Position numbers and translations under genes: made by a program. A stretch of DNA of 39,779 bases from Bacteroidales bacterium (lineage in GTDB: Bacteria > Bacteroidota > Bacteroidia > Bacteroidales > JAADGE01). Positions 1,252 to 19,957 of this stretch are shown piece by piece. The notes beneath the pieces are model-generated. The model saw only the letters and a list, made by a program, of their open reading frames with translations, was not told where the DNA came from and did not search any database. Positions within the stretch are counted from its first letter, which is position 1; each line of letters starts with the position of its first letter. The DNA lies in the NCBI GenBank assembly GCA_024762915.1, contig JANTGL010000001.1, positions 1-39,779 of the forward strand, given 5' to 3'.

Positions 1252-1274
1252 TATTATTAACCAAACAGAATATT

Positions 1275-3017: not shown

Positions 3018-3023
3018 TTAATT

Positions 3024-3560
3024 ATGGAAAAGTTGTTTACATTATTAATCGTAACGGAAAATAACATCGGCTTATTAAACCATGTTACCGTTGTTTTTAC
3101 TCGCAGACATATGAATATCAGAAGTATTACGGCTTCCGAGTCTAAAATTAAAGATATTTATACCTATACAATTGTTATAAAAAATACACGCGAACTGACT
3201 GATATTGTTGCTAAGCAATTGGAAAAAATTATCGGTGTTTTTAAGGTATTTGTGTATGAAGAAGATGAAATTATTTATCAGGAACTGGCACTTTATAAAT
3301 TACCGATTTCAGCCATTAATGAAGGTGTCGGTATTGAAAAAATTGTCAGAGAACACAATGCTCGTATTCTGAGTATCGAAAAAGAATATATTTTAATTGA
3401 AAAAACCGGACACAAAAAAGAAACTCAAGCATTGTTAGAAACCTTGGAACCTTTCGGTATTTTACAATTTATCAGGTCGGGGAGGGTAGCAATGGCAAAA
3501 CCGATGAAACCTCTGGAAGAACATTTGGCGGAAAAAGAAAATGCTTACGAGTATATTTAA
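3024..3560 (+). CDS. ilvN: acetolactate synthase small (regulatory) subunit
   Basis: 178 aa with an N-terminal ACT-domain pattern (LLIVTENNIGLLNHVTVVFTRRHMNIRSI). It lies immediately downstream of ilvB. Confidence 0.9.
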   Translation: MEKLFTLLIVTENNIGLLNHVTVVFTRRHMNIRSITASESKIKDIYTYTIVIKNTRELTDIVAKQLEKIIGVFKVFVYEEDEIIYQELALYKLPISAINEGVGIEKIVREHNARILSIEKEYILIEKTGHKKETQALLETLEPFGILQFIRSGRVAMAKPMKPLEEHLAEKENAYEYI

Positions 3561-3695
3561 CAGTTTTCGGCAGGCAGTTCTTCAAATTGATTTTTACTTT
3601 GGAATGTAAACTGCCGACTGTTTTCTAAATAACAAAATGAATTTTATTTAAGAACATATTAAAAATACAGAACTAATTCACAAAAACGAAAAATA

Positions 3696-5055: not shown

Positions 5056-5766
5056 TCAAGTATTCCCCAAGATGTTTGAATGAAACGATATTTCAGAATT
5101 TTTTAAATTCATGAGAATTGAAAATGCACGATCTATATCTTTGTTCTTTACGATAATAGTAAATTCGTTGGTCGTTGAAATTAATTCTTCAATATTAATT
5201 TTTCTTAATGACAGATTTTTAAGAATGTAAAAATAAAATCCGATAGTTTCAGTCCGTTTTTTAGGAAGACTAATGGTTATTGACGACAGATTTGTTTTTT
5301 GAAAAATTTGCTTTTCATCTTTAAAAATTTCTTTAATCAACTCAGCTAATGCATTGCTTACAACTATTGATGTTTCAAATATTCCTCTTGAAACAGAATA
5401 GTATGATTGATTTTGTCCGATATGCTTTATCATATCTTGTTGCCTTAATCCGATAGTTTCCGAATTCTCGAAAGTGAAATGCATTAAGCCTGATATAACA
5501 ATTAAGTCACCCAAATCGTTTACAAATTGTTTTAAGCCTGAATTCGGTAATTCAAAATAATTTGATTTTACTCTTTTTAAAGCAATAATTACCGCTCCGA
5601 TTTGGATCTCTTTTTTTAGTACTTGCTCTATTTTCGGTTTTATTTTTCGTGCTAAAGAAGAAATGTTAATAATATCTTCAAATAAAGCTTCTTCAAGAAA
5701 AGGGGTTTGTTGTATTAACTGTTTTGCGATTTCTCCTATTGATACCATCTGTATGTTTTTATACAA
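5056..5766 (-). CDS. hypothetical protein, possibly an ACT-like small-molecule-binding regulatory protein
   Basis: 236-aa ORF divergent from lysA. An alternative start, MVSIGE, is at 5748. I recognise no catalytic motif. The alternating beta-alpha-beta-like pattern loosely resembles aspartokinase-type ACT regulatory domains, but I cannot verify this without an HMM search. Confidence 0.35.
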   Translation of the reverse strand: MYKNIQMVSIGEIAKQLIQQTPFLEEALFEDIINISSLARKIKPKIEQVLKKEIQIGAVIIALKRVKSNYFELPNSGLKQFVNDLGDLIVISGLMHFTFENSETIGLRQQDMIKHIGQNQSYYSVSRGIFETSIVVSNALAELIKEIFKDEKQIFQKTNLSSITISLPKKRTETIGFYFYILKNLSLRKINIEELISTTNEFTIIVKNKDIDRAFSILMNLKNSEISFHSNILGNT

Positions 5767-5783
5767 TTTGTATTTATTTTGTA

Positions 5784-5816
5784 CAAATTTACAATATTTT
5801 TTTTTATAAATTCAAA
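5784..5816 (-). promoter_or_regulatory. candidate Bacteroidota sigma-A promoter for the 5056..5766 gene
   Basis: On the minus strand there is TTTG (5816-5813), a 21-nt spacer, then TAAATTTG (5791-5784). This matches the TTTG / TAnnTTTG consensus and lies about 18 nt upstream of the ATG at 5766. Confidence 0.4.
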
Positions 5817-5880
5817 TTATTATACTTTTATTTTACAATAAAAATAAAAAAAGTATTTATTTTAATTTTCAGAACAAATA

Positions 5881-7080
5881 ATGTTTAATAAAGAACTGGT
5901 CAAATTATTTTCTCAAATAGAAACTCCCTTTTATTATTATGATACGGAATTATTTGAGAAGAGTTTAAACAAGCTTAAATCTGCAGCTTCTAAATACAAC
6001 TATAAAGTGCATTATGCTTTGAAAGCAAATGCCAATGATAGAATTCTTGAAACAATTAAGAATTTTGGATTCGGAGCGGATTGTGTCAGCGGAAATGAAA
6101 TTGAAAAAGCAATTGAAATAGGTTTCCCTTCTGATAAAATTGTATTTGCCGGCGTCGGAAAAACCGATAAGGAAATTGAATTTGCAATTGAATCTTCAAT
6201 ATTCGGATTTAACTGTGAATCAATTGAAGAAATAGAAATAATTAATGAAATTGCAATAAAAAAGGAAAAAACGGTTCCGATTTTTTTAAGGTTAAATCCG
6301 GATATTGATGCCGTTACTCATAATTATCTTACTACCGGACTTAATGAAAATAAATTCGGAATTCCCTTAAGTTTTTTGGATGATGTACTGTTTCAAGTGC
6401 AAAAACTTTCAAATATTAAAATTATAGGTTTGCATTTTCATATCGGCTCTCAAATTACGAGTTTTGATCCGTTTATTAATTTATGCAAAAAAGTAAATAT
6501 TATACAAGAAGATTTATTTAATAAATACGGTATAATGTTGAAATATATAAATTTAGGAGGAGGATTAGGTATTAATTATACCAATCCTGATTCTGAATTA
6601 ATTTCGGATTTTGAGAAATTTTTCTTAATAATTAACAAACATCTGCATACACGCCCCGAACAAGAAATTCATTTTGAATTAGGTCGCTCCGTAGTAGGAC
6701 AAACAGGCAGTTTAATTTCAAGCGTATTATATGTTAAGAGAAGTGTTAATAAACAATTTGCAATTCTTGATGCAGGAATGACTGATCTTATCAGACCGGC
6801 ATTATACGGTGCTCATCATAAAATAGAAAATCTGTCAAAACAGGAAAATTTAACTAACTTGATTAAATATGATATCGTAGGTCCCGTGTGTGAATCTTCT
6901 GACAGTTTTGATATTGATATAAAACTTCCTAAAACCGAACGCGGTGATATTATTGCAATAAGAAGTGCCGGAGCTTACGGGGAAATAATGGTTTCTCAGT
7001 ATAATTTAAGAAATAAACCGAAAACAATTTATTCGGATACGATATCGCAACACTTAAATTTAGAATCAAATAATATATGA
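5881..7080 (+). CDS. lysA: diaminopimelate decarboxylase
   Basis: 399 aa fold-type III PLP decarboxylase. Motifs: YALKANAN (PLP lysine), HNYLTTGLNENKFGI, HFHIGSQI, GGGLGINY, VGPVCESSD, AGAYG. The CESSD and KFGI patterns are typical of LysA. Confidence 0.9.
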   Translation: MFNKELVKLFSQIETPFYYYDTELFEKSLNKLKSAASKYNYKVHYALKANANDRILETIKNFGFGADCVSGNEIEKAIEIGFPSDKIVFAGVGKTDKEIEFAIESSIFGFNCESIEEIEIINEIAIKKEKTVPIFLRLNPDIDAVTHNYLTTGLNENKFGIPLSFLDDVLFQVQKLSNIKIIGLHFHIGSQITSFDPFINLCKKVNIIQEDLFNKYGIMLKYINLGGGLGINYTNPDSELISDFEKFFLIINKHLHTRPEQEIHFELGRSVVGQTGSLISSVLYVKRSVNKQFAILDAGMTDLIRPALYGAHHKIENLSKQENLTNLIKYDIVGPVCESSDSFDIDIKLPKTERGDIIAIRSAGAYGEIMVSQYNLRNKPKTIYSDTISQHLNLESNNI

Positions 7081-7186
7081 TCGGGAATGAAATTCTGAAT
7101 ATGAAATTTGTGTATTAATAATATAAATTAAAAGAAATTTTGTTTTAAAAACAGTTATTAATATTTTTAGACAATAATCAAAAACT

Positions 7187-8398
7187 ATGAAAAATATTTC
7201 GATAATTTTTGCTTTATTAATGATTTTTGGTTCATGTACAATGAAAAACAATGAGAAACTGAAAGAAGAAATTAATGCAAATGTTGATTCTTTGAAAAGT
7301 ATTTATGCCCCTGATAAACGTATCGTTTTATGGGATGTAATAACAGATATTACTAATGATACTTTGCTTGTTACGGCAGAATTAGAAAATAAAACGGCTG
7401 CCGATCAATTGAAAGAAATTCTGACAAAAAAATTTCCCGATGTTTTATTAAAAATTAAACTGTTACCCGAAAAAGAACCGGAAAGAACCGTACATGCAAT
7501 AGTAAATAATTCAGTTGCCAGTATCAGAAGAAAAGCAAAACACAGTTCCGAGCTTGTAAATCAAGCATTTTTGGGTACGCCGGTTAAAGTTTATAAAAAA
7601 GAAAGAAATTGGTATTTAATACAAACTCCAAACAGATATATCGGTTGGATTAATGAAGATGACATCTTTTTTTTTAATAAAGAGCAACTTAGTAAGTTTA
7701 AACAAAAAAATAAAATTATATACATAAAGCAACAAGGCAGCAGTTATTCAAAACCTGATGAAAATTCACAAGTTATTTCAGATTTAGTTATAGGATGTAT
7801 CCTGTCGGTTACGGATACAGTTAATAATTTCTGTAAAGTACAATATCCTGACGGCAGAGAAGCATATGTGTTAAAAAAAGAAGTTGATAAAATGATGACC
7901 GTTTTTAATCGAATTCCCGAAGGTAAAAATTTGGTCAATACGGCTAAAAAGTTTTACGGAATTCCGTATCTTTGGGGAGGTTTTTCATCAAAAGCAATTG
8001 ATTGCAGCGGATTTACCTCAACGGTCTATTTTATAAACGGAGTTATTCTGCAACGTGACGCATCTCAGCAAATAAAATACGGAACCGAGGCAGCAAATAA
8101 ATTTGAATTTAAAAATCTTTTAGCCGGTGATTTGCTTTTCTTTACTGATAATAGTTACTTGGGAGATAAAGAAAAATCAAAAAAAATAACACATGTTGGT
8201 ATGTACATCGGAGATACCGAATTTATTCATGCCTCCGGTAAAGTGAAAATAAACAGTATGGATTCAACAAGAAATAATTTTAATCCGGAATATCGTGATA
8301 CTTTTAAAAAAGCAATAAGAATAATAGGAAATGTCGGAACAGAATCTATTGAAAAAATAACAGATAATAAATTCTATAAAACAATTATACCGAATTAA
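7187..8398 (+). CDS. NlpC/P60 (C40) cysteine peptidase with N-terminal SH3b-like domains, YkfC-like gamma-D-glutamyl-L-diamino acid endopeptidase; lipoprotein
   Basis: Signal peptide with lipobox (LLMIFGSC). The C-terminal C40 catalytic core has GIPYLWGG...DCSGF (Cys), HVGMYIG (His) and FIHAS. It is 4 nt upstream of the dipeptide epimerase, like ykfC-ykfB in Bacillus. Confidence 0.85.
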   Translation: MKNISIIFALLMIFGSCTMKNNEKLKEEINANVDSLKSIYAPDKRIVLWDVITDITNDTLLVTAELENKTAADQLKEILTKKFPDVLLKIKLLPEKEPERTVHAIVNNSVASIRRKAKHSSELVNQAFLGTPVKVYKKERNWYLIQTPNRYIGWINEDDIFFFNKEQLSKFKQKNKIIYIKQQGSSYSKPDENSQVISDLVIGCILSVTDTVNNFCKVQYPDGREAYVLKKEVDKMMTVFNRIPEGKNLVNTAKKFYGIPYLWGGFSSKAIDCSGFTSTVYFINGVILQRDASQQIKYGTEAANKFEFKNLLAGDLLFFTDNSYLGDKEKSKKITHVGMYIGDTEFIHASGKVKINSMDSTRNNFNPEYRDTFKKAIRIIGNVGTESIEKITDNKFYKTIIPN

Positions 8399-8402
8399 TA
8401 AA

Positions 8403-9527
8403 ATGTATTTAAACAGACGAAACTTTATTAAAACAATTTCAGCAGCTTCATTAGGAACATTGATCCCTAATATAGCAGTTGCATCATTTATGAAACCTAT
8501 TAAATCAAAAAAATTGAAACTATCATTCAGAACATACGATTTACAGTTGAAACATACTTTTACGGTTGCCGAATATTCAAGAGATACAACACCGGTTGTT
8601 TTAACAGAATTAGAATATGACGGAATTATCGGTTACGGTGAAGCATCAATGCCGCCTTATTTGGGAGAATCTCATAAAAGTGTTACAAGTTTCCTTTCAA
8701 AAGTAAATCTGGCACAATTTAATGACCCTTTCAGAATCGATGATATCCTTACATATGTTGATTCCGTTGATAAAAAAAATCGTGCGGCAAAAGCATCAAT
8801 CGATATTGCATTACACGATTTAATGGGGAAAATTGTTAATCAACCCTTATATAAATTGTGGGGATTAAATCCTGAAGAAACACCCGTAACATCTTTTACA
8901 ATCGGAATTGATAAACCGGATGTTGTAAGAATGAAAACGAAGGAAGCAAAAGGATTTAAAGTTTTAAAAGTAAAACTGGGACGCGGAAACGATAAAGAAA
9001 TGATTAATTCTGTAAGAGAAATTACGGATGTTCCTTTATATGTAGATGTTAATCAAGGTTGGCAAAACAAAGAAGAAGCTTTAGAGATGATCCATTGGCT
9101 TAAAGAGAAAGGTGTTATTTTTGTTGAACAACCGTTACCGAAAGAAAATATCGATGATATGGCGTGGTTGACACAAAACAGCCCTTTGCCTACAATGGCT
9201 GATGAAGCATTTCAAAGACTTTCGGATATTGTTGCATTTAAAGATGTTTATTCAGGGATTAATATCAAACTTATGAAAAGCACCGGTTTAAGAGAAGCTC
9301 ATAAAATGATTACTGTTGCAAGAGCTTTAGATATGAAAGTTATGATGGGTTGTATGACGGAAACTTCGTGTGCCGTTTCTGCTGCTGCTCAGTTATCGCC
9401 GTTGGTTGATTGGGCAGATCTTGACGGAAATCTGTTAATAAGTAATGATGTATATGAGGGGGTGAAAGTAATTAACGGAAAAATTACACTTAATAATTTA
9501 CCGGGTATAGGAATTCGAAAATTATAA
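8403..9527 (+). CDS. L-Ala-D/L-Glu (dipeptide) epimerase, enolase superfamily, with predicted Tat signal
   Basis: Muconate-lactonizing-enzyme subgroup motifs are present: LKVKLG (KxK), DVNQGW, VEQP, MADEAF (metal ligands), NIKLMK (second catalytic Lys) and DLDG. The N-terminus NRRNFIKTISAASLGTL...AVASF fits the twin-arginine consensus with an AxA cleavage site. Confidence 0.85.
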   Translation: MYLNRRNFIKTISAASLGTLIPNIAVASFMKPIKSKKLKLSFRTYDLQLKHTFTVAEYSRDTTPVVLTELEYDGIIGYGEASMPPYLGESHKSVTSFLSKVNLAQFNDPFRIDDILTYVDSVDKKNRAAKASIDIALHDLMGKIVNQPLYKLWGLNPEETPVTSFTIGIDKPDVVRMKTKEAKGFKVLKVKLGRGNDKEMINSVREITDVPLYVDVNQGWQNKEEALEMIHWLKEKGVIFVEQPLPKENIDDMAWLTQNSPLPTMADEAFQRLSDIVAFKDVYSGINIKLMKSTGLREAHKMITVARALDMKVMMGCMTETSCAVSAAAQLSPLVDWADLDGNLLISNDVYEGVKVINGKITLNNLPGIGIRKL

Positions 9528-9596
9528 ATAATTTCATCAAATCTGTTTGACAGAAACTGAATTCAAATTAATTTTTTTAATTAAAATATAATAATT

Positions 9597-12500
9597 ATGA
9601 AAAGATTAACCTTGTTAATTACCATTTTTTTGTTCGGGTATACGGGATTCGGACAAATAAATGTAAGCGGCTTAGTGACAAATTATGATGACGGAGAACC
9701 GATTCCGGGTGTTACGATAATTGTTAAAGGAACCAGTACGGGAACCGTAACCGGTTCGGACGGAAAATATTCCATAACAATTGAATCAGAAGAAAATAAA
9801 CTGGTATTCAGTTATGTAGGGATGGAAACGCAAGAGGTTGAAATTGCCGGAAAAAGTATAATTAATGTAGCTCTAAAAAGAAGTGCCGAAGGTTTGGACG
9901 AAGTAGTTGTAACAGCTTTAGGAATTAAGCGTGAAAAAAAAGCATTAGGCTATTCTGTTCAGGATGTCAGCGGTAAAGATATTTCTAAATCTAATCCTGA
10001 TAATGTTGTTTCTGCTTTATCCGGAAATATTGCAGGTGCTCAAATTATTACTTCATCCGGACAAGTGGGAGCTTCTTCAACGATTTCAATCAGAGGAAAT
10101 AAAACATTTACAGGTTCGACACAACCTCTTTTTGTTGTTGACGGAACACCGATAATGAACGGAATATCATCAGCTCGTTCTAGTACCACTTCTACGGATT
10201 TCGGGAATGCAGCCATGGATATCAATCCTGCCAATATTGAAAGTATTTCAGTATTGAAAGGTGCCAGTGCAACGGCTTTATACGGAAGCAGGGCTGCAAA
10301 CGGTGTCATTCTGATTACAACAAAAAAAGGTGCCGGAACAAAACAAAACGGTCTCGGAATTGATTATTCTGCTTCTGTTTCGACAAGCGAAGTTTATATT
10401 CTTCCGAATTATCAAAATGAATACGGACAAGGAATGAATTCAGATGAATATAATTGGCAAAAAAATTATTCTGATTTAAGCTATCAGGAATTTGTTGATG
10501 ACAGAGGATTTAAATGGGGTACAGACGGCTCCGGAAGACTAATGGATGCTGATGAAAGTTGGGGCGCAAGACTTGATGCCGGTTTAAATGTTCCTCAAAT
10601 GGATTCACCTTTGGATGCAGACGGAAATGTAAGCCCGACACCTTGGATTTCTCATCCGAATAATATTAAAGACTTTTATGAAAGAGGACTAACATTTACA
10701 AATAATATTGCATTGTCCGGCGCTAAAGAGAATTCAAGTTTCAGATTAACATTCGGAAATTCAAATCAAAAAGGAACTTCACCTAATACAGATCAGAATA
10801 AAACCAATATTGGTGTGAATTCTGAATTCAAGCTGTCAGATAAACTTACGGTTAACATAAATGCGACATATACTAAACTTGTAAATAATAATTTACCGCA
10901 ACAAGAGAATTCAATGAGAAATCCTTTATTAGAATTTAATTCATGGTTTGGACGTCAAGTTGATATGAACTACTTGAAAGAACATTACGATGATATTGTT
11001 TTATACGGAAGGTCTCAGAAAGAAAAAGCATTTAATTGGATGATGGCATACGGTTCTCAACATCCGAATCCATATTGGAATGCATACAAAAATACAATGT
11101 CAAGAGAAAGAAACAGAGTATTTGGAAATACTTCAATTACGTATAATTTATTTGACGGAGTTGACATTATAGGAAGAATCGGAACAGATTTCTTTAACGA
11201 ACATCGTAAATATATCTATCATAAATATTCTCGTGATTGGACTCCGATGTATGATAATGCTAAAAACGGTAATTTTTGGGAACAATACCGATTCGAAAGC
11301 GAAACAAATGCAGATTTATTTTTACAAATTAACAAGCATCTGTCGGATGATTTAACATTATTTTCAACCTTAGGAGGAAATTACAGAAATGCTTATGATC
11401 AATTTGCTACAACATACGGAACAAATTTAATTGTCCCTGACTTTTTTTCAACTTCAAATTTTGAAGGAGAGCCCGTTGTAAGTTTTACAAAATATCAGAC
11501 TGTAACAAACAGTGTTTTCGGTTCTGCTAATCTCGGATTTAAAGATTATGTATTCCTTGATCTTACTTTAAGAGGTGACTGGAGTTCAACCTTGCCGGCT
11601 GAAAATCGTAATTATTGGTATCCTTCCGTGAATGTCGGGTTTATAATAAACGAAGCATTTAACTTGACCTCAAAAACTTTCACATACGGGAAAATACGTG
11701 CCGGATATGCTGTTGTCGGTAATGCAACTTCCCCGTATCAATTGAAACCGGTTTTTTATTCGGTCGGAACAACGTTTAATGATATAAATTTATTTAGTGC
11801 ACAATCAACACTTCCTACGGCAAATTTAAAACCTGAAAAAACAAAAAGTTTGGAATTCGGCGGAGAATTTAAATTTTTTCAAAACAGACTCGGAATAGAC
11901 ATTACTTATTATAATGCCGTAACAAAAGACCAACTCATTCAAGTTGATGTTCCCACCTCTTCAGGATACAGTTCTTGGATGAAAAATGCCGGAAGCATCC
12001 GAAATAAAGGTTTTGAAATACAATTATACGGTACCGTCCTTAAAACAAAAAATCTGTCTTGGGATGTAACTCTTAATTGGTCAACCAATAAAAACACTGT
12101 AATTGAATTAGCAGATAATTTAAAACAACTGCAAATTTCGTATTATTACAGTAAGAGCCAAGCAAGTTTAATGGCTTTCCCCGGGGAAGAATGGGGAACA
12201 ATATACGGCACAACATTTAAAAAAGATTCTGTTTCAGGAAACGTTCTGATTGATCAAAACGGAAAACCGATTACGACGGAAGATCCGCAAATTCTTGGTT
12301 ATGTTAATCCGGATTGGATAGGCGGAATTAGAAATTCAGTTACATATAAGAGATTTTCATTATCCGCATTAATCGATTTCAGAATGGGAGGTGATATTTT
12401 CAGTATGACTAAAGCTGTCGGTCAAAAAACAGGAATATTGGATGTCACAATAAAAGACGGAATTCGTGAAAACGGAATGGTTGTTGACGGCGTTTACGAA

Positions 12501-12887
12501 GACGGTGCTATGGTGGATTTAAACGGAGACGGCACAACCGAAGATGCAAGCGGACAAGCTAATCAAACAATTATTTCGGCTCAATCATATTGGGGAAGTT
12601 CTCGTTCATGGGGAGAACTTGCAATTATTGACGGAAGTTTTATAAAATTCAGAGAACTTTCATTAGCATATAACATTCCGAAAAAAATTGTTAATAAAAT
12701 AAAAATTCAAAATGCAAATATCTCACTTTTCGGCAGAAACTTAGCTTTACTTTATACGGATAAAAGTAATGACGCACATATTGACCCCGAAGTTTCATCA
12801 GGGGGTACAATAAGCGGTATAGGTATAGAAACATATCAGCTGCCTTCTGCAAGGACATTAGGATTTCAAATAAATATTAAATTTTAA
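9597..12887 (+). CDS. SusC/RagA family TonB-linked outer membrane protein
   Basis: 1096 aa. It has a signal peptide, a carboxypeptidase-regulatory-like domain (VSGLVTNYDDGEPIPGVTIIVKGT), the plug signature DEVVVTALGIKREKKALGYSV and a C-terminal terminal Phe (INIKF). There is no N-terminal STN/anti-sigma extension. A SusD-like gene follows. Confidence 0.95.
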   Translation: MKRLTLLITIFLFGYTGFGQINVSGLVTNYDDGEPIPGVTIIVKGTSTGTVTGSDGKYSITIESEENKLVFSYVGMETQEVEIAGKSIINVALKRSAEGLDEVVVTALGIKREKKALGYSVQDVSGKDISKSNPDNVVSALSGNIAGAQIITSSGQVGASSTISIRGNKTFTGSTQPLFVVDGTPIMNGISSARSSTTSTDFGNAAMDINPANIESISVLKGASATALYGSRAANGVILITTKKGAGTKQNGLGIDYSASVSTSEVYILPNYQNEYGQGMNSDEYNWQKNYSDLSYQEFVDDRGFKWGTDGSGRLMDADESWGARLDAGLNVPQMDSPLDADGNVSPTPWISHPNNIKDFYERGLTFTNNIALSGAKENSSFRLTFGNSNQKGTSPNTDQNKTNIGVNSEFKLSDKLTVNINATYTKLVNNNLPQQENSMRNPLLEFNSWFGRQVDMNYLKEHYDDIVLYGRSQKEKAFNWMMAYGSQHPNPYWNAYKNTMSRERNRVFGNTSITYNLFDGVDIIGRIGTDFFNEHRKYIYHKYSRDWTPMYDNAKNGNFWEQYRFESETNADLFLQINKHLSDDLTLFSTLGGNYRNAYDQFATTYGTNLIVPDFFSTSNFEGEPVVSFTKYQTVTNSVFGSANLGFKDYVFLDLTLRGDWSSTLPAENRNYWYPSVNVGFIINEAFNLTSKTFTYGKIRAGYAVVGNATSPYQLKPVFYSVGTTFNDINLFSAQSTLPTANLKPEKTKSLEFGGEFKFFQNRLGIDITYYNAVTKDQLIQVDVPTSSGYSSWMKNAGSIRNKGFEIQLYGTVLKTKNLSWDVTLNWSTNKNTVIELADNLKQLQISYYYSKSQASLMAFPGEEWGTIYGTTFKKDSVSGNVLIDQNGKPITTEDPQILGYVNPDWIGGIRNSVTYKRFSLSALIDFRMGGDIFSMTKAVGQKTGILDVTIKDGIRENGMVVDGVYEDGAMVDLNGDGTTEDASGQANQTIISAQSYWGSSRSWGELAIIDGSFIKFRELSLAYNIPKKIVNKIKIQNANISLFGRNLALLYTDKSNDAHIDPEVSSGGTISGIGIETYQLPSARTLGFQINIKF

Positions 12888-13026
12888 AATATTATCATAT
12901 GAAACACCCATTCTAAACTATTAACACCCAAGGGAATGACTAATGCAGTTTCATAAATAAACTTATTAATTAAAGCTCACATGCGGGTGTTCCTATGTGA
13001 CCTTTAAAATCAATAAAAATAGACAC

Positions 13027-14454
13027 ATGAAAAACAAGATATATTTAATTTTGACGGGATTTGTTTTTATTTTCATTTCATCTTGTACAAAAGATTTTGA
13101 TGCCATAAATACAAATCCGAATAACCCGGAATTAGCCCCTGTTGAAAATGTTTTTGCCTATACAATTAAAAGTGTTTCCTCTTGTTTCGGTACAACAGAA
13201 ATGGAAACTGCCGCAGGATATGTCGGCCATGTTACAAAAGGAAAATATACTGATATTACAACATATACTTCACCTCCGAGCAGCGGTGTATGGAATGTCA
13301 TATACAGAACGACTGCTTCAAATGCTAATTTTGTAATAAGTGAAGCTAAGAAAACAGAAAATTTTAATTTACTGGGTGCAACAATGGTTCTGAAAGTTTA
13401 TGTTATGCAATTGGCGACGGATATTTACGGTAAAGTTCCGTATTCGGAAGCCGGACTCGGAAATGACGGTATTATATATCCTGCTTATGACACAGAACAA
13501 GATATATATTATGATATGCTTGCAAAATTAGATACAGCAAATGATTTACTTATAAACGATCCTCAAAACGGAAATATTGAGGACGGAGATTTATTATATG
13601 AAGGAAATATTACAAAATGGAAAAGATTTTGTAATTCATTACATTTAAGACTGGCTATTCGTATCTCGAATATTGATGAAAATAAAGCAAGCAGTGAAAT
13701 ATCAAAAATATTTAATGATCCTGATAAATATCCGATATTCCAAAGCAATGCGGATAATGCTTTTCTTGCTTATCCCGGAGAAGATTGGGTAGAACCATGG
13801 ACGGCACGTCACAGCGCAATCGGAGTTGATTGGATGGCAAAACCTATTATTGATTCTTTATTAAATTATTCGGATCCCCGTATTGCATTTTATGCAGATA
13901 CTTTAACTGACGGAACATACGTCGGTCTTACGGTTGGTGAAGAAGCAACAACAACAAATTACTCAAAAGTAAATGACTTATTTGTCAATAATCCAACAGG
14001 TTCTGTTTTTTTTCTGAAATATGCTGAAGTTGAATTTATTATTGCTGAAGCAGCTAAAAGAGGATTTATTACTGCTGACGCACAAACTGCCTATGAAACT
14101 GCAATTGATGCTTCTTGTAAAGAATACGGAATCAGTGACGGAGATATTTCAACATATTTGGCAGGAAGTAAAGTCGCTTGGGATGATGATATAAATAAAA
14201 TTTATATTCAAAAATGGATTTCATTATTCAGACAAAGTTGGGAAGCATGGGCAGAAATGCGAAGAACTGATATTCCGACTTTTCCGCCTGCTGCTAACTC
14301 TAATTACAGCGGACATAATCGCCCGCCGTTCAGATTTCCGTATCCTGATTCAGAAATTATGTTAAATTCAGATAATATTCCGCAAGACGTAAACGAAGAT
14401 GATAATTATTGGGGTTATCAAATATGGTGGGATACAAGAACAAATGTTCAATAA
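13027..14454 (+). CDS. SusD/RagB family nutrient-binding outer membrane lipoprotein
   Basis: The ATG at 13027 gives MKNKIYLILTGFVFIFISSC (signal plus lipobox Cys). The track start at 12997 is a GTG upstream of this. SusD-like helical/TPR-like composition, positioned after SusC. Confidence 0.9.
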   Translation: MKNKIYLILTGFVFIFISSCTKDFDAINTNPNNPELAPVENVFAYTIKSVSSCFGTTEMETAAGYVGHVTKGKYTDITTYTSPPSSGVWNVIYRTTASNANFVISEAKKTENFNLLGATMVLKVYVMQLATDIYGKVPYSEAGLGNDGIIYPAYDTEQDIYYDMLAKLDTANDLLINDPQNGNIEDGDLLYEGNITKWKRFCNSLHLRLAIRISNIDENKASSEISKIFNDPDKYPIFQSNADNAFLAYPGEDWVEPWTARHSAIGVDWMAKPIIDSLLNYSDPRIAFYADTLTDGTYVGLTVGEEATTTNYSKVNDLFVNNPTGSVFFLKYAEVEFIIAEAAKRGFITADAQTAYETAIDASCKEYGISDGDISTYLAGSKVAWDDDINKIYIQKWISLFRQSWEAWAEMRRTDIPTFPPAANSNYSGHNRPPFRFPYPDSEIMLNSDNIPQDVNEDDNYWGYQIWWDTRTNVQ

Positions 14455-14464
14455 TTTAACTGTT

Positions 14465-14526
14465 AATATTAAACTTTATAACTAATTCTGTTAATTAAAT
14501 TAGTTATAAAGTTTAATGTTTTTTTA
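14465..14526 (+). terminator. strong intrinsic terminator after the SusC/SusD genes
   Basis: A perfect 19-bp stem: ATTAAACTTTATAACTAAT (14468-14486) pairs with ATTAGTTATAAAGTTTAAT (14499-14517). The loop is 12 nt and a T7 run follows at 14519-14525. Confidence 0.8.
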
Positions 14527-14641
14527 ATAAATTCTTCCTGCCGGAAATTTTATTAAAACATTCACAAAGTTTACAAGCAGAGTCGAATTTGACAAATTTC
14601 CGTTTTAATATACGATATTTTCTTATCCGAGAATTTGATAA

Positions 14642-15700
14642 ATGATGATTGACAGAAAAAAATTCATAAAACAAATAGGATTGTTATCAGGATTTACGCT
14701 TTTTTCAAGTATAAATCTTTTTGCTTTTAATTCCTCTCAAACTTCAAGCATCAGCTCAAAAAAGAGAATCCCGAAAAAACTTAAAAAAGGAGCCGTAATT
14801 GGTTTAATAACGCCATCAGGTGTAATTACAAAAGAGCAACTTGAAGAAACCGTAAAAGAAGTTGAATCTCTCGGATACAAAGCATATTATAAACCGAGTG
14901 TTTTATCGGAATTCGGTTATTTGGCAGGTACGGATGAAGAACGTTCCGATGAATTAATTCATATGTTTGAAAACCCTGATGTCGATGCAATTTTATGTGT
15001 ACGAGGCGGATATGGTGCAATTCGAATTCTTGATTTAATCGATTTCAATATTATTAAAGAAAACCCTAAAATATTTATCGGCTATAGCGATATAACTGCC
15101 TTAATTACTGCTTTTTACTTAAAAACAGGATTGGTTTCTTTTCACGGTCCCGTAGGCATTTCAACGTTTAATGAATTTTCGTTAAAATCACTTTTCGATA
15201 TTATTTCAAAAACCAAAAACACTCATTTGTATTCTTATAAGCGTGAACCTGAAACGGATAATAATTCTGAATTTGATTTTTATACAATAAATAAAGGAAA
15301 AGCTTCCGGAGAATTAATAGGAGGTAATATGAGTGTCCTTGTTTCGATGATAGGCGGAAAATTCGAACCTAAATTTAAAGGAAAAATTGTCTATCTTGAA
15401 GAAATTGATGAGAAAACATATAAAATTGATAAAATGATCACTCAGCTTATTCATTCAACTGATTTAAAAGAAGCATCGGGTATTATTTTTGGTATTTTGA
15501 GCGGTTGCGACAATAACGAGAAACCAACTTTTCTTTTAAAAGAATTATTAATACAAATTATGACTCCCGTAAAAATTCCGGTTGTATACGGATTTCCTTT
15601 CGGTCACGTAAAAAATAAAATGACGCTTCCTACAGGAATAAAAGCTGAACTGAATGCAGACACAAAAACATTAAAACTCATTGAAAAAACCGTTAATTAA
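14642..15700 (+). CDS. ldcA: LD-carboxypeptidase (peptidase S66, LdcA-like muramoyltetrapeptide carboxypeptidase) with N-terminal export signal
   Basis: S66 motifs are GYSDITAL (nucleophile Ser), a conserved Glu region and GFPFGH (His). The N-terminus is MMIDRKKFIKQIGLLSGFTLFSSINLFAF, a signal that is Tat-like but has RK in place of RR. Confidence 0.85.
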   Translation: MMIDRKKFIKQIGLLSGFTLFSSINLFAFNSSQTSSISSKKRIPKKLKKGAVIGLITPSGVITKEQLEETVKEVESLGYKAYYKPSVLSEFGYLAGTDEERSDELIHMFENPDVDAILCVRGGYGAIRILDLIDFNIIKENPKIFIGYSDITALITAFYLKTGLVSFHGPVGISTFNEFSLKSLFDIISKTKNTHLYSYKREPETDNNSEFDFYTINKGKASGELIGGNMSVLVSMIGGKFEPKFKGKIVYLEEIDEKTYKIDKMITQLIHSTDLKEASGIIFGILSGCDNNEKPTFLLKELLIQIMTPVKIPVVYGFPFGHVKNKMTLPTGIKAELNADTKTLKLIEKTVN

Positions 15701-15714
15701 TTTAATTCGGAAAA

Positions 15715-17199
15715 ATGTATAAAACAATTCTTCTTATTATTTATTTTTGCTTTACCGTATCAACTGAATATGCACAAATAAGAAAATTAGAAAAAAGAAA
15801 ACATTCGGTAAATAAAACATTAAAACAAATAATTTCATATCCGGATTTTAAAAATGCCGACTTTGGTTTTATTGCAAAAGATATCAAAACAGGAGAGATT
15901 CTTGCATCTTATCATTCTGACAAATCATTTATGCCGGCATCAACACAAAAACTTTTTACGACGGCAACAGCCCTTGAAGTTTTAGATTCAAATTTCAAAT
16001 TTACGACATCACTTCAATATTCCGGCAGCATTGATACTGTTTCAGGGATATTATACGGAAATATTCTTATAAAAGGGGGCGGAGACCCGACACTCGGTTC
16101 AAAATATTTTGATTCGACAAAAGACAAACAATTTCTTAATGATTGGTTAAATGCAATAAAAAAACTCGGTATAGATTCTGTTGCGGGTGCTGTTGTTGCC
16201 GACGCATCGGTTTTTGATTATAATATAGTTCCGACAACTTGGTCTTGGAATAATATGGGGAATTATTATGGTGCCGGAGCTAACGGCCTTACGGTATTCG
16301 ATAATTATTATACCGTTTTTTTTAAAACTTCGAGTAAAATAGGAGAAATAACTGAACCGGTTCAAGTAATTCCTGATATTCCGAATTTAGTATTTGATAA
16401 TACTTCAATATCCGATTCAATAACTTATGACAATTCATATATTTTCGGAGCACCGTTTTCAAATCAACGGTATGTCAGAGGAGAACTTCCTGCAGGAAAA
16501 GCTAATTTCGGAGTGAAAGGTTCAATGCCTGACCCGGCTTATACAACGGCATATATTTTTGAAAAATATTTACAAAAGAACGGTATCGGAATAAAAAATA
16601 AAGCAACAACAATTCGCTTGTCTCAACAAAAATTTCCTGACAGAACTTTAATAACAAAAACCCGGTCTCCGAAACTGTCAGAAATTATAAAACAGACTAA
16701 TACACACAGTATCAATCTGTTTGCAGAACATTTATTAAAAGAAATCGGATTGAAATTATCCGGAAATACAATAACTGAAAAAGCTGTTGATGAAATTATT
16801 AAATTTTGGAAAGAAAAAAATGTTGATACTCAGGGGATGTTTCTTTATGACGGAAGCGGACTGTCAAGGCATGACAGTTTTACACCGTCTCAAATGGTTC
16901 AAATTTTAACATACATGAAAAACAACAGCAGAAATTTTTCGGATTTTTACAATTCATTACCGATTGCAGGAGAAACCGGAACAATGAAAAATATGTTTAA
17001 AAAGAGTATTGCAAAAGGGAAATTAAGAGCAAAAAGCGGAACGGTTGACAGAGTAAAAGCTTATGCCGGATATGTTACGTCTGTTTCGGGGCGTGAAATT
17101 GTTTTCTCAATGGTTGTAAACGATTTCAGTTGTTCATCCGGTGACGCAAAAAAGCAACTTGAAAAATTAATGAATGCTTTAGCAGAATTTGATAAATAA
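15715..17199 (+). CDS. dacB: D-alanyl-D-alanine carboxypeptidase/endopeptidase (PBP4, peptidase S13)
   Basis: 494 aa with a signal peptide. Motifs: SxxK (PASTQKLFT), SxN (HSINLFAE) and K[ST]G (AKSGTV). It starts 14 nt after ldcA. Confidence 0.9.
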   Translation: MYKTILLIIYFCFTVSTEYAQIRKLEKRKHSVNKTLKQIISYPDFKNADFGFIAKDIKTGEILASYHSDKSFMPASTQKLFTTATALEVLDSNFKFTTSLQYSGSIDTVSGILYGNILIKGGGDPTLGSKYFDSTKDKQFLNDWLNAIKKLGIDSVAGAVVADASVFDYNIVPTTWSWNNMGNYYGAGANGLTVFDNYYTVFFKTSSKIGEITEPVQVIPDIPNLVFDNTSISDSITYDNSYIFGAPFSNQRYVRGELPAGKANFGVKGSMPDPAYTTAYIFEKYLQKNGIGIKNKATTIRLSQQKFPDRTLITKTRSPKLSEIIKQTNTHSINLFAEHLLKEIGLKLSGNTITEKAVDEIIKFWKEKNVDTQGMFLYDGSGLSRHDSFTPSQMVQILTYMKNNSRNFSDFYNSLPIAGETGTMKNMFKKSIAKGKLRAKSGTVDRVKAYAGYVTSVSGREIVFSMVVNDFSCSSGDAKKQLEKLMNALAEFDK

Positions 17200-17225
17200 G
17201 AATGATTTATAAATAAAAAACAACT

Positions 17226-18704
17226 ATGACTGACTACGGATGGCTCTCGGTTTTACCGCCTGTTTTGGCAATTTTTTTAGCATTAAAAACCAAACAAGTT
17301 TATATCGCATTAATATTCGGAATCGGATTGGGATGGCTGATTATTAATGACTGGAATGTTATTGACGGAACCGTGTCAACCATCGAAGCTTTTGTTAATG
17401 TTTTTAAATCCGAAGGAAATACACGAACTATAATGTTCAGTGCATTAGTAGGTTCTTTGCTTATTTTTATTCAAAAATCGGGAGGTGTTGAAGGATTTAT
17501 GAAACGAATTACAAAGATTCTGCAAAAGTATGAAGCTAAACAAAGCGGCAGAAGTCGTGTTGTGGTTCAAATTTTTGCTTTACTGACAGGAATCTCTCTT
17601 TTTGTTGAAACCAGCATCAGTTCTTTAACGGTAGGAACACTTTACCGTCCGATTTTTGATAAATTGAAAATACCTCGTGAAAAATTGGCCTATATCGCCG
17701 ATTCTATTTCTGCACCTTCAGCTGTTTTAATTCCGTTTAACGCTTGGGGAGCTTTTATTATGGGCTTGTTATTAACTCAAGGCATTGACGAACCTTTTAC
17801 AACGCTTATGAAGGCAATAGGATACAATTTTTATCCCATTTTGACCTTGCTGATGGTATTTGTAATTATTGTAAGTAAAAAAGATTTCGGACCTATGCGT
17901 AAGGCAGAAATCAGAACTAAAGAAACCGGAAAAGTGCATGCCGATAATGCTCGACCGATGGTTTCGGACAGTATCACTTCAAGCAAAACAAAGGAAAATA
18001 TTAAACCGAAAGCTTTTAATATGGTTATTCCATTATTTACAATGGTCGGAATGATGCCTGCCATGTTGGCTTTTACCGGTTGGGAAAAAGTAGAAACTTT
18101 TACTTCTTTAGGAAATCATTTAAGACAAGCAATCGGGCAGGGTTCCGGTTCTGCAGCTGTTTTATATTCTGTTATAACGGCTTTATTTATTGCAATGATT
18201 CTTTACCGAAGTCAAAAAATTATGAAATCGCGAGAACTGATTGAAACAGCTCTGAAAGGTGTCAGCGGATTAATGCCTTTAGCTTTGTTAATGATGCTGG
18301 CGTTTGCCATAAGTGCCGTATGCAATGAATTAGGAACAGGTATTTATATTGCTAACCTCTCAAAAGATTGGCTCTCACCCGGATTATTACCTGCCGTAGT
18401 TTTTATGATTAGTGCTTTTATTGCTTTTTCGACAGGAACATCATGGGGAACATTTGCCATAATGATGTCAATAGCAATTCCGATGGCAGAAGTTCAAGAT
18501 GCCAATATTTATTTGGTAGTTGCCGCAACACTCGGCGGCGGTGTATTCGGTGATCATTGTTCACCGATTTCGGATACCACGATAATATCTTCAATGGCCT
18601 CGGCATCGGATCATATTGATCATGTAAAAACGCAATTACCTTATGCCTTATTTATCGGTATAATTACGGTATTATTATATTTAGTCCTTGGCTTGTTATT
18701 TTAA
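17226..18704 (+). CDS. NhaC-family (Na+/H+ antiporter-type) polytopic membrane transporter
   Basis: 492 aa with about 11-12 hydrophobic segments. The overall pattern is typical of the NhaC C-terminal family (e.g. GTSWGTFAIMM, GGVFGDHCSPISDTTI). It starts 26 nt after dacB. The substrate cannot be deduced from the sequence. Confidence 0.75.
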   Translation: MTDYGWLSVLPPVLAIFLALKTKQVYIALIFGIGLGWLIINDWNVIDGTVSTIEAFVNVFKSEGNTRTIMFSALVGSLLIFIQKSGGVEGFMKRITKILQKYEAKQSGRSRVVVQIFALLTGISLFVETSISSLTVGTLYRPIFDKLKIPREKLAYIADSISAPSAVLIPFNAWGAFIMGLLLTQGIDEPFTTLMKAIGYNFYPILTLLMVFVIIVSKKDFGPMRKAEIRTKETGKVHADNARPMVSDSITSSKTKENIKPKAFNMVIPLFTMVGMMPAMLAFTGWEKVETFTSLGNHLRQAIGQGSGSAAVLYSVITALFIAMILYRSQKIMKSRELIETALKGVSGLMPLALLMMLAFAISAVCNELGTGIYIANLSKDWLSPGLLPAVVFMISAFIAFSTGTSWGTFAIMMSIAIPMAEVQDANIYLVVAATLGGGVFGDHCSPISDTTIISSMASASDHIDHVKTQLPYALFIGIITVLLYLVLGLLF

Positions 18705-18848
18705 AATATGAAATAATTTGGATATTTCGTATTATCATATTAAGCTTAGCTTATTTTATTTTTGAATTTCCTGAAACGTCCGAATTAAGAATTATACAAA
18801 TGCAGATAAGATGTATAAATATATTTCCGGGTTTTTTATGAAACTATT

Positions 18849-19808
18849 TTACATTCCTACACCCATTACCAATATATCATCAACTTGTTCTTCGTCTCCC
18901 TGCCAATCAATGAGAGTGTTCCTTAGGATATCACCTTGTTCTTTCATCGGTTTATTCTGAACGGATAGCAGGACTTCTTTCAAATGATTATATTTAAATT
19001 TTTTATTTCTCGGGCCTCCGAATTGGTCTGCATATCCGTCGGAAAAAATATATATTGAATCCCCTTTTTCAAGTTGCACCGTATGATTGGTATAAATATC
19101 AACAACCCCGTCAGTATTAACGCCTATCGGTAATTTGTCGGCTTTTATTTCAAATAATTCCCCTTTTTTTACATAATACAAGGGATTATACGCGCCTGCA
19201 TACATGACCTCTCGTTTTTTAAAATCAACGGTACAAACAGCTAAGTCCATACTGTCTTTTACGCCGCTTTCATCATGTGTTTGTCTTAATACATCATTGA
19301 CATATTCATCAAGAAATGATAATAATTCACCCGGATTATTAATCGTTTCATTTTGAATACCTTGAATCAATCCGTTAAATCCGATAACCGACATTAATGC
19401 CCCGGGTACCCCGTGTCCCGTACAATCTACTGCAGCAAATAATACTTTATCTTTAAATTCGGAAACAAAATAGAAATCACCGCTTACGACATCTTTAGGC
19501 ATATATAAAATAAAATGTTCGGGAAGAAGGTCGTTTACCAAATAATCCGGAGGAGAAATCGCTGTTTGAATTCTGTATGCATAGCGTATGCTGTCGAGTA
19601 AATCTTTCTTTTTTTCTTCAAGTTCTCTGTTTGTGAAATTTAACTCGTGTGTATGAAATTGTTTGAATAAATTTAATGCTTCTTTAAAATTTGAGTTTTC
19701 TTCATAAAATTCTGCTAAATGTTTTAAATTCAGAAGAATAATCTTTTCATTGTTTTCTTCTTGAGCTGATAATAATGCTTTTTTTAATTCTTGTTCTTTC
19801 TGTTCCAT
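18849..19808 (-). CDS. PP2C-family serine phosphatase (SpoIIE/RsbU-like), soluble
   Basis: 319 aa. A short N-terminal TPR-like/coiled-coil segment is followed by the PP2C core SGDFYF...AAVDCTGHGVPGALMS...DGYADQFG...DDILVMGV. It is closely similar to the C-terminus of the 26832..30134 protein. Confidence 0.85.
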   Translation of the reverse strand: MEQKEQELKKALLSAQEENNEKIILLNLKHLAEFYEENSNFKEALNLFKQFHTHELNFTNRELEEKKKDLLDSIRYAYRIQTAISPPDYLVNDLLPEHFILYMPKDVVSGDFYFVSEFKDKVLFAAVDCTGHGVPGALMSVIGFNGLIQGIQNETINNPGELLSFLDEYVNDVLRQTHDESGVKDSMDLAVCTVDFKKREVMYAGAYNPLYYVKKGELFEIKADKLPIGVNTDGVVDIYTNHTVQLEKGDSIYIFSDGYADQFGGPRNKKFKYNHLKEVLLSVQNKPMKEQGDILRNTLIDWQGDEEQVDDILVMGVGM

Positions 19809-19901
19809 GGGAAGAATAATTTAAAGTCGTAAGTTACAAAAAAAGCAGAGAATCTTTTATAAAAAATGTAAATATTTAAGCTTGGTTTTTTGAATTAGGT
19901 T

Positions 19902-19938
19902 AAAAAAAACCTGCAACTATAAAATTACAGGTTTTTTT
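19902..19938 (-). terminator. intrinsic (bidirectional-type) terminator after kbl
   Basis: AAAAAAACCTG (19902-19913) pairs with CAGGTTTTTTT (19928-19938) across a 14-nt loop. On the minus strand this is a stem followed by a T-run 20 nt after the kbl stop. Confidence 0.7.
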
Positions 19939-19957
19939 AAACTTTCGGTTAAGTTTT

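Follow-up and report, generated by a model that had tools for sequence, protein, structure and literature searches.

In Bacillus subtilis (ykfABCD) and Escherichia coli (LdcA, MpaA, YcjG), murein peptides are catabolised in the cytoplasm after uptake by ABC oligopeptide permeases. For Bacteroides thetaiotaomicron, a periplasmic recycling route has been proposed that involves AmiA (BT1087), the endopeptidase BtYkfC (BT1314), the epimerase BT1313 and the permease BT1086 (Xu et al. 2015, PMC4600125); that model is concerned with products of the cell's own wall turnover, and no importer in the outer membrane is named in it (PMC4600125). Here we describe a locus of eight genes at positions 5881-18704 of a 39,779-nucleotide (nt) stretch of DNA from a Bacteroidales bacterium (contig JANTGL010000001.1, assembly GCA_024762915.1; the whole stretch is called the window). 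It contains genes for peptidoglycan-peptide enzymes together with an adjacent susC/susD pair (9597-14454), a kind of importer known chiefly for sugars and a feature of canonical polysaccharide utilisation loci (PULs). Judging from gene content and conservation, we consider it probable, with moderate confidence, that this is a peptidoglycan stem-peptide utilisation locus formed around a SusC/SusD outer-membrane importer.

SusC/SusD systems that handle peptides have been described. RagAB of Porphyromonas gingivalis is a TonB-dependent importer of the SusCD type that takes up protease-generated protein peptides. The BT2263/BT2264 pair is cited as solved with a bound peptide (Glenwright et al. 2017). 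PUL27 (BT2262-BT2264) is needed in vivo and has no defined substrate, and the paper on it does not count BT1313/BT1314 among its genes. Given RagAB and the BT2263/BT2264-peptide complex, the statement of an earlier sequence-only reading of this DNA that peptide specificity of SusC/SusD is poorly explored needs correcting. The Urechidicola symbiont of Idas mussels has a murein-related "PUL" with two susCD pairs (bioRxiv 10.1101/2023.02.09.527947). Its contig carries murQ, nagB, ampG, ampD, dacA, an L-Ala-D/L-Glu epimerase gene, nhaC, a bioF-like gene and genes for glycoside hydrolases (GH) of families 3, 18, 171 and 10, and its authors note a role in murein metabolism for the majority of the genes (bioRxiv 10.1101/2023.02.09.527947). 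Thus the enzymes, the idea of a periplasmic YkfC/epimerase route, peptide-importing SusCD systems and a GH-rich murein PUL are already known. Apart from the Urechidicola description, no described SusC/SusD stem-peptide locus was found in full-text searches of the literature. Neither was a SusCD locus free of carbohydrate-active enzymes (CAZymes) and having only exported stem-peptide enzymes, lysA and an NhaC-superfamily permease, nor a report of different SusCD lineages recurring in the slot next to a ykfC-epimerase pair.

The chemistry predicted for the window locus, from LD-carboxypeptidase through gamma-D-Glu-diaminopimelate (DAP) cleavage to L-Ala-D/L-Glu epimerisation, is the same as in B. 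subtilis and E. coli. However, the steps down to the dipeptide would be periplasmic, and uptake would proceed via a TonB-dependent SusCD system and a secondary permease. With the B. thetaiotaomicron route the locus shares the YkfC-type endopeptidase and the epimerase family, both exported and encoded by an adjacent gene pair. Unlike that route, it clusters the genes for an S66 peptidase, PBP4, an NhaC-family permease and LysA with this pair, has SusC/SusD between the epimerase and ldcA, and lacks an AmiA-type amidase. The likeness to BT2263/BT2264 is that BT2264 is the closest solved SusC and that the window SusD and BT2263 are both of the SusD-like_2 class; however, these are not orthologues, as the SusD match is 119 bits, whereas orthologues within the family are at least 44% identical. 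RagAB is again a TonB-dependent system of the SusCD type whose cargo is peptide and not glycan, but RagA is a weaker match (165 bits), RagB is of the SusD_RagB class, and RagAB is not clustered with D-amino-acid peptidases. As in Urechidicola, susCD share a contig with the epimerase and nhaC (and, on the Urechidicola contig, with dacA and the bioF-like gene). The Urechidicola locus is rich in GHs, covers the sugar part and relies on cytoplasmic processing, whereas CAZymes and amidases are lacking from the window locus, and all of its peptide enzymes carry export signals.

All eight genes lie on the plus strand, as seen from the list of open reading frames (ORFs): lysA for diaminopimelate decarboxylase (5881-7080), ykfC with the domain order SH3b-SH3b-NlpC/P60 (7187-8398; PF00877, PF08239, PF18348), the gene of an enolase-superfamily (MR_MLE) epimerase (8403-9527; PF13378 and PF02746), susC (9597-12887), susD (13027-14454), ldcA for an S66 peptidase (14642-15700; PF02016 and PF17676), pbp4 of family S13 (15715-17199) and the NhaC-superfamily permease gene (17226-18704; PF03553). 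Families were assigned by profile searches (Pfam, NCBIfam/TIGRFAM) of the window ORFs, and these agree with the order and families given in the sequence-only reading. That reading had also found no GH, amidase or regulator in the window. Indeed, there is no N-acetylmuramic acid (MurNAc)-L-Ala amidase in the window, but there is a GH77 gene at 31616-33073 on the minus strand, and there are two signalling proteins of the PP2C/SpoIIE type. The GH77 gene is the only GH gene of the window, lies about 13 kb from the locus and is unrelated to peptidoglycan. None of the eight locus genes encodes a GH, polysaccharide lyase or carbohydrate esterase by Pfam and NCBIfam profiles, and no hybrid two-component system, SusR or extracytoplasmic-function sigma/anti-sigma regulator was found in the region 5056-18704.

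The following scheme is proposed. SusD, as a surface lipoprotein lid, and SusC, as a TonB-dependent barrel, would take up peptidoglycan-derived peptides from other cells or the cell itself. The cargo would be free tri-, tetra- and pentapeptides, perhaps also cross-linked peptide dimers. In the periplasm PBP4 would trim the terminal D-Ala and/or cut D-Ala-mDAP cross-links (mDAP, meso-DAP), the S66 enzyme, exported by the twin-arginine translocation (Tat) pathway, would take D-Ala off tetrapeptides, the lipoprotein YkfC would cut the gamma-D-Glu-mDAP bond of peptides whose N-terminal L-Ala is free, and the Tat-exported epimerase would convert L-Ala-D-Glu to L-Ala-L-Glu. The periplasmic products would be D-Ala, mDAP and L-Ala-L-Glu. 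The NhaC-family permease would move one or more of them, likely mDAP and/or the dipeptide, over the inner membrane, and cytoplasmic LysA would convert mDAP to L-lysine. That the four enzymes form a complete linear route, as was claimed before, stands in part: the set is specific for peptidoglycan peptides, as supported by the YkfC residues and by 66% identity of the epimerase to BT1313, but the route need not be linear. Since the tetrapeptide is the preferred substrate of the Bacteroides YkfC, this enzyme may precede the LD-carboxypeptidase and yield L-Ala-D-Glu and mDAP-D-Ala; the order of steps given above is what we infer. A more specific proposal is that this SusC/SusD clade, with its BT2264-like barrel and SusD-like_2 lid, is a dedicated stem-peptide importer joined to a fully periplasmic line of Tat-exported epimerase and Tat-exported S66 enzyme and to a permease for mDAP or murein dipeptide linked to LysA. 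We put this forward as a tentative possibility.

The ykfC product is similar to BoYkfC (3npf; E = 5e-57) and BtYkfC (3pvq/4r0k; E = 8e-56). Its Pfam architecture consists of SH3_3 (two stretches), SH3_16 and NLPC_P60. The catalytic Cys/His/His residues are kept, the motifs DCSG, HVG and FIHA aligning with both Bacteroides enzymes, and so are the equivalents of BoYkfC Tyr80 (PNRYIGW for PDDYTGW) and Asp221 (QRDASQQ for PRDASQQ). These two interface residues were proposed as key specificity determinants (Xu et al., PMC4600125). Y80A lowered tetrapeptide activity, but neither Y80A nor Y80A/D221N altered substrate preference (PMC4600125). For cleavage of the gamma-D-Glu-A2pm bond (A2pm, another abbreviation of DAP), BoYkfC and BtYkfC require a free tri-, tetra- or pentapeptide whose N-terminal residue is L-Ala; they favour the tetrapeptide more than 10-fold and are inactive on muropeptides and peptidoglycan (PMC4600125). 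The window protein is thus predicted to be a gamma-D-Glu-diamino-acid endopeptidase of the stem-peptide type. Its N-terminal extension of about 75 amino acids (aa; ..YAPDKRV..) was considered as a docking domain specific for SusCD-linked proteins and rejected, as most family members have it, including those from loci without SusCD.

The epimerase is 66% identical to BT1313 (PDB 3iji) over the full mature length (E = 1e-156, 525 bits). For B. thetaiotaomicron, BT1313 is cited as the L-Ala-D/L-Glu epimerase of the YkfB-like kind that has been characterised (Xu et al., PMC4600125). In the window sequence one can make out the KxK motif (LKVKLG), the metal ligands and DLD. Their roles we take to be those in YkfB and YcjG. 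The protein scores below the equivalog cut-offs of NF011708 (153 vs 343 bits) and NF041118 (126 vs 500), and at 206 against a cut-off of 400 with the model of the N-acetyl-D-Glu racemase DgcA, and its specificity therefore rests on the relationship to BT1313.

The Ser/Glu/His motifs of the S66 enzyme (GYSD, EEIDE, PFGH) align with those of the muramoyltetrapeptide carboxypeptidase 6uuk. It scores 171 bits with NF008424 (cut-off 378) and is presumed from its context to be an LdcA-like LD-carboxypeptidase. PBP4 and LysA are above the equivalog cut-offs (TIGR00666, 252 vs 108 bits; TIGR01048, 398 vs 298), so that by profile PBP4 is classed as an S13 DD-carboxypeptidase/DD-endopeptidase. The permease scores 53 bits with the NhaC equivalog TIGR00931 (cut-off 370) and matches only the superfamily domain PF03553. 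By this assignment it is an NhaC-superfamily inner-membrane protein and not a bona fide NhaC; it has more than 8000 homologues. As the S66 enzyme, the epimerase and the permease are below equivalog cut-offs, their exact specificities are predictions. The cargo of the permease is presumed to be the periplasmic products, mDAP and/or the dipeptide. The repeated finding of lysA nearby speaks for mDAP as the candidate, while a Lutibacter cluster described below, with a putatively cytoplasmic epimerase paralogue, would fit import of the dipeptide instead. Taken together, the profiles and motifs support an enzyme set specific for peptidoglycan peptides.

The epimerase starts with a twin-arginine signal (MYLNRRNFIKT, with the motif NRRNFIK), and the S66 enzyme with a Tat-like one (MMIDRKKFIKQ, with DRKKFIK). 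YkfC (...FGSC) and SusD have lipoprotein signals and PBP4 has a Sec signal. LysA has no signal peptide and is thus cytoplasmic. The motif RRxF[LIV]K is present in 10 of the 11 SusCD-linked epimerase orthologues, and the RR motif in about 38 of 41 metagenomic relatives, including those on human-gut contigs. The lipobox Cys of YkfC is kept in all 12 SusCD-linked orthologues, and Tat-like RR or RK motifs occur in most S66 orthologues. Since the export signals of the four peptide-processing enzymes are kept in orthologues, breakdown down to the dipeptide would be periplasmic. The periplasm is where the SusC barrel would release its cargo, and only the step from DAP to lysine is predicted to be cytoplasmic.

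SusC is above the family cut-offs (TIGR04056, 650 vs 368 bits; TIGR04057, 66 vs 46) and contains the Plug domain PF07715. Its N-terminus comprises a signal, CarboxypepD_reg and Plug; it lacks an STN domain. The closest solved SusC, BT2264 (5fq6_B), matches with 410 bits (E = 2e-121), the next best structure with 194 bits. The mechanical ORF of SusD starts with GTG at 12997; we take ATG at 13027 as the true start because the 475-aa product is identical to a database protein. SusD belongs to the SusD-like_2 class (PF12771, 312 bits), its lipobox (..SSC-TKDF) is conserved, and it matches PDB 5j5u with 147 bits. The members of its sequence cluster are proteins of metagenome-assembled genomes (MAGs) of uncultured Bacteroidales and Bacteroidetes, and relatives align over the full length down to about 41% identity. 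The substrate of SusC and SusD we infer from gene context only.

The gaps between ykfC and the epimerase gene (4 nt), ldcA and pbp4 (14 nt), and pbp4 and the permease gene (26 nt) are short; those between lysA and ykfC and between the epimerase gene and susC are 106 and 69 nt. Directly downstream of susD there is a terminator-like hairpin with a U-run (14465-14525, plus strand). Direct folding gives a 23-bp A-T stem at 14465-14520 followed by the U-run, with a free energy of -21.3 kcal/mol and a z-score of -6.4, and none of 200 shuffled sequences folds as well; the strong terminator reported earlier at this position is thus real. A consensus terminator scan missed it because the scan requires G-C pairs and the stem has none. 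At the same position after susD, 11 of 14 sister loci have strong hairpins, usually with U-runs, that are unlike in sequence. The gaps and the hairpin suggest at least two candidate transcription units, ykfC-epimerase-susC-susD and ldcA-pbp4-nhaC. No lysine riboswitch or other RNA leader was found in the window at the Rfam gathering threshold. Sigma-70-like sites are not commoner than in shuffled sequences (83 vs 72 +/- 10), and no promoter was assigned. There is no enrichment of the Bacteroidetes -7 motif TAnnTTTG, and the key intergenic gaps on the plus strand do not contain it.

Conservation was analysed from SusD, using 43 genomic loci with a SusD alignment and loci from an exact-protein look-up, onto which the window proteins were mapped by tblastn. 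The closest genomic locus is from a Bacteroidales MAG (SusD 93% identical). Besides the window locus, 10 distinct loci (L006, L009, L012, L013, L015, L016, L018, L024/L026, L029 and L030 in our numbering) have the order ykfC-epimerase-susC-susD-ldcA; they belong to MAGs of the Marinilabiliales type, Bacteroidales, Flavobacteriaceae and "Chlorobiota". In the Draconibacterium MAG locus L006, the entire eight-gene order and the gene of an upstream ACT-domain protein are identical. The core order is present in the "Chlorobiota" MAG L018 and in Flavobacteriaceae/Lutibacter (L024/L026), and is kept in L029 and L030 at SusD identity of only 44-45%; one more copy (L051) is truncated by the contig end. 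The pair susD-ldcA is seen on the short contigs L005, L010, L028 and L034. Maribellus sediminis has susC-susD-ldcA, followed on the opposite strand by an M1 peptidase gene with a type IX secretion system (T9SS) signal, lysA and pbp4. Among loci with SusD at least 57% identical and with sequence downstream of susD, ldcA follows directly in 12 of 16. The linkage is incomplete, and the short Sunxiuqinia contig L014 has no ldcA downstream of susD.

The remaining partners are found near the SusC/SusD core in variable positions. The lysA gene lies within about 5 kb of it, with differing position and orientation, in L006, L009, L011, L018, L024/L026 and L051, and pbp4 is nearby in L006, L011, L013, L015, L016 and L024/L026. 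The NhaC-family permease is among the best-conserved partners (68-91% identity). That the three genes differ in position and orientation speaks for selection to keep them close together and against plain inheritance of a single operon. In a control, none of 11 loci with a distant SusD (at most 30% identity) holds any of the enzymes. The arrangement goes beyond chance, as the same order occurs in unrelated contigs of several orders. A neighbour-joining tree of SusD has the linked loci on its deepest branches and in the outgroup, with the unlinked groups nested among them. The simplest reading would be that the linkage is ancestral and was lost several times.

Seen from the epimerase, 80 metagenomic loci were returned, of which the 41 of at least 10 kb were used for counts. 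The ykfC gene adjoins the epimerase gene in 38 of the 41. SusC follows the epimerase directly in seven, among which L051 is a close relative of the window locus. A distant SusD-like_2 protein is encoded after ykfC-epimerase in L080/L106 (30-31% identity) and in L100. In L116/L121/L123, the slot is occupied by a RagB-type SusD (PF07980/PF14322), followed by M14 and S66 peptidases. The region at approximately 8700-20600 of the latter loci contains ykfC, the gene of a signal-less 351-aa epimerase, susC and the RagB-type susD, and, on the opposite strand, genes for M14, S66 and an amidohydrolase; by its gene content it is, on present evidence, a separately assembled version of the locus. Thus at least three other SusC/SusD lineages occupy the slot after ykfC-epimerase, which would be the strongest comparative argument for a functional tie. 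The permease accompanies peptidoglycan-peptide genes even in the absence of SusC/SusD, namely in L054 and in Lutibacter sp. A64 (L049). The latter has no SusCD; its nhaC homologue is adjacent to pbp4, and the cluster contains M14, S66, an epimerase paralogue without a signal, a BioF-like enzyme and an exported Amidase_2, with a GH20 gene nearby.

Several kinds of secreted proteins are encoded in the sister loci. T9SS-secreted M1-family peptidases (about 660 aa, aminopeptidase-like) occur in L001/L011, L012, L015, L016, L029 and L030. Another T9SS-secreted family consists of proteins with one to four ConA-like/Laminin_G_3 repeats. A distinct secreted protein of about 350 aa is also found after the unlinked susD of Saprospiraceae. 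Sites of the T9SS accessory genes are 12636-14615 and 3186-6575 in L001, 12614-14608 in L012, 11556-13553 and 14731-16719 in L029, 2286-3374 in L007 and 12660-13706 in L016. For this SusCD clade, the T9SS accessory proteins may act as partners in binding or processing at the surface. Searches of the window for an M1 peptidase, a transglutaminase-core protein, an M14 peptidase, Amidase_2 and T9SS proteins found none.

Several observations weigh against a stem-peptide importer. There is no adjacent SusC in 34 of the 41 epimerase loci. Three loci (L053-L055) have ykfC-epimerase-ldcA without SusC/SusD, and one of them (L054) runs on to pbp4 and nhaC, so that the enzymes work without this importer and SusCD is an optional add-on. 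SusCD alone is found in a Prolixibacteraceae clade (SusD 50-53% identical), in Prolixibacter sp. NT017 (59%) and in Saprospiraceae (65-67%), and the SusD tree has no support values. With no MurNAc-L-Ala amidase in the window or in sister loci carrying this SusC/SusD clade, free peptides have no given source, and monomeric stem peptides (below 600 Da) might do without a TonB-dependent importer. The S66 enzyme matches 6uuk with 141 bits and MccF-like structures with about 127 bits. The ConA-like/Laminin_G_3 and M1 neighbours and, in Flavobacteriaceae, a transglutaminase-core protein could point to a glycan-bearing or broader peptide substrate. It is possible, though in our opinion unlikely, that the enzymes only recycle the cell's own wall turnover in the periplasm, the permease retrieves the products, and SusC/SusD imports something else. 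This would be in line with the route from YkfC (BT1314) to the epimerase (BT1313) proposed in B. thetaiotaomicron without SusC/SusD (PMC4600125), with the large share of epimerase loci lacking SusC, with the SusCD-less clusters of L054 and Lutibacter sp. A64, and with the existence of close SusD orthologues without the enzymes. However, in the 10 other loci, from several orders, susC-susD is embedded in the cluster with the epimerase on one side and ldcA on the other, other SusC/SusD lineages (at least three) are found in the same slot, and the gaps of 4 and 69 nt together with a hairpin only after susD suggest co-transcription of ykfC-epimerase-susC-susD. Moreover, as the pathway would be periplasmic, it is not separable from recycling of own wall turnover; scavenging and recycling do not exclude each other, since the same enzymes would handle both pools.

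Another explanation, to which we give rather little weight, is that SusC/SusD imports N-acetylglucosamine (GlcNAc)-MurNAc-peptides or anhydro-muropeptides, the amidase and sugar enzymes being encoded elsewhere. The Urechidicola contig does join two susCD pairs with murQ, nagB, ampG, ampD and GHs, the Lutibacter A64 cluster has the exported Amidase_2 and the nearby GH20, and the ConA-like/Laminin_G_3 fold of the secreted proteins in sister loci is common in carbohydrate binding. On the other hand, neither the window locus nor the sister loci of this SusC/SusD clade, within 10 kb, contain an amidase, a lytic transglycosylase, a GH or a MurNAc/GlcNAc catabolic gene, and the Bacteroides YkfC is inactive on MurNAc-linked peptides (PMC4600125). 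General uptake of protein-derived oligopeptides in the manner of RagAB, with the wall-peptide enzymes as mere neighbours sharing the periplasmic pool, seems improbable. RagAB and the BT2263/BT2264-peptide complex handle ordinary peptides, and the T9SS-secreted M1 aminopeptidase-like enzymes recur in sister loci, but the window locus contains no general peptidase, every conserved enzyme partner acts on D-amino-acid bonds specific for peptidoglycan, and co-localisation of lysA makes sense only with release of DAP. Finally, housekeeping wall genes (dacB, ldcA, lysA) could by chance stand beside an unrelated SusC/SusD pair, as lysA borders the ilv operon and PBP4 and LysA are housekeeping proteins in many bacteria; this is highly improbable, being disfavoured by an order kept across distant lineages, by recruitment of SusCD to the slot more than once and by the unlinked distant-SusD controls. 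Thus, the dedication to stem peptides put forward in the sequence-only reading is supported in part: the genes are co-conserved with this SusC/SusD clade across orders, with the core order in the 10 further loci. The linkage is not universal: most ykfC-epimerase pairs are without SusC/SusD, some SusD orthologues are unlinked, and the substrate is deduced from context.

Peptidoglycan is a large pool of D-amino-acid-rich organic nitrogen in sediments, sea water and the gut, and the passage of its peptides through the Gram-negative outer membrane is poorly understood. The locus suggests that its carriers may take up and digest wall debris. If uptake of stem peptides by this SusC/SusD clade is true, the SusCD/PUL paradigm would be widened from glycans and ordinary peptides to wall peptides; no SusCD system before it would have had D-amino-acid-containing peptides as its defined cargo, and the BT2264-like group would gain a candidate substrate class. 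An abundant and highly conserved NhaC-superfamily permease would acquire a role, as a previously unrecognised transporter of mDAP or murein dipeptide, and Tat export would have relocated a complete catabolic line for murein peptides to the periplasm. Taken with the several independent pairings of SusCD and ykfC-epimerase, this would make harvesting of wall debris a recurrent lifestyle trait of environmental Bacteroidota.

Some other genes recur near the enzymes. A transglutaminase-core protein (cysteine-protease fold, approximately 480-500 aa) is encoded directly next to the ykfC-epimerase pair in 15 of the 41 metagenomic loci, including human-gut contigs (for example, L071 7401-8837 and L024 14283-15782), and between pbp4 and nhaC in Flavobacteriaceae. 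The signal-less enolase-superfamily paralogue (32-34% identical to the window epimerase) recurs beside a pyridoxal-phosphate enzyme of the BioF/Kbl family (340-372 aa), both next to SusCD loci (L001 17437-19692; L015, L029, L030) and in the SusCD-less Lutibacter L049 (15586-17621), where the pair adjoins the exported Amidase_2. The two proteins may form a cytoplasmic branch of wall-peptide or D-Glu catabolism. The window aminotransferase gene at 19958-21184 was considered as a member of the locus. By TIGR01822 (688 bits) its product is Kbl. Identity to the BioF-like protein of the sister loci is only 27-32%, and we treat the gene as unrelated. In L050 (10001-13884), a permease homologue (71% identical) is encoded two genes from a 455-aa Mur ligase. 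This ligase was considered as Mpl, but its scores with MurC (236 bits) and Mpl (175 bits) are both below cut-off; the assignment is ambiguous and was not used, although tripeptide recycling would be hinted at if the ligase were Mpl.

Upstream of lysA and divergent from it lies the gene of a stand-alone aspartokinase-type regulatory protein (5056-5766, minus strand; about 230 aa) with an N-terminal helical part, tandem ACT domains and no kinase domain. In a Foldseek search with its AF2 model (pLDDT 82.9), the best 50 listed matches are all aspartate kinases or their regulatory domains or subunits, beta subunits included (probability 1.0), with target-normalised TM-scores of about 0.7 for stand-alone regulatory chains. 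More than 700 homologues occur in Bacteroidota, some of them wrongly labelled "aspartate kinase", and the gene adjoins lysA in L002/L026, L006, L024, L051 and L052 (60-93% identity). This protein may be an accessory, regulatory or amino-acid-sensing partner of lysA and lysine metabolism, and its gene is only a candidate member of the locus. Directly upstream, at 22-4742 on the plus strand, are ilvD (cut by the window edge), ilvB, ilvN and ilvC, which places lysA at the border of an amino-acid biosynthesis region.

The two signalling genes of the PP2C/SpoIIE type are not conserved in sister loci. One, at 18849-19808 on the minus strand, encodes a SiaA-like PP2C phosphatase and is convergent with nhaC. 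The other, at 26832-30134 on the plus strand, encodes an 1100-aa protein with a Y_Y_Y domain, as in hybrid two-component sensors, and a C-terminal SpoIIE/PP2C phosphatase. The genes of a cheR-like methyltransferase, a cheB-like methylesterase and a GAF-domain protein stand in a row at 34169-36290 on the plus strand and form a chemotaxis-type methylation module. A GH77 4-alpha-glucanotransferase gene is also found a few kb upstream of susC in Maribellus (L001 1118-2602), which is probably a coincidence.

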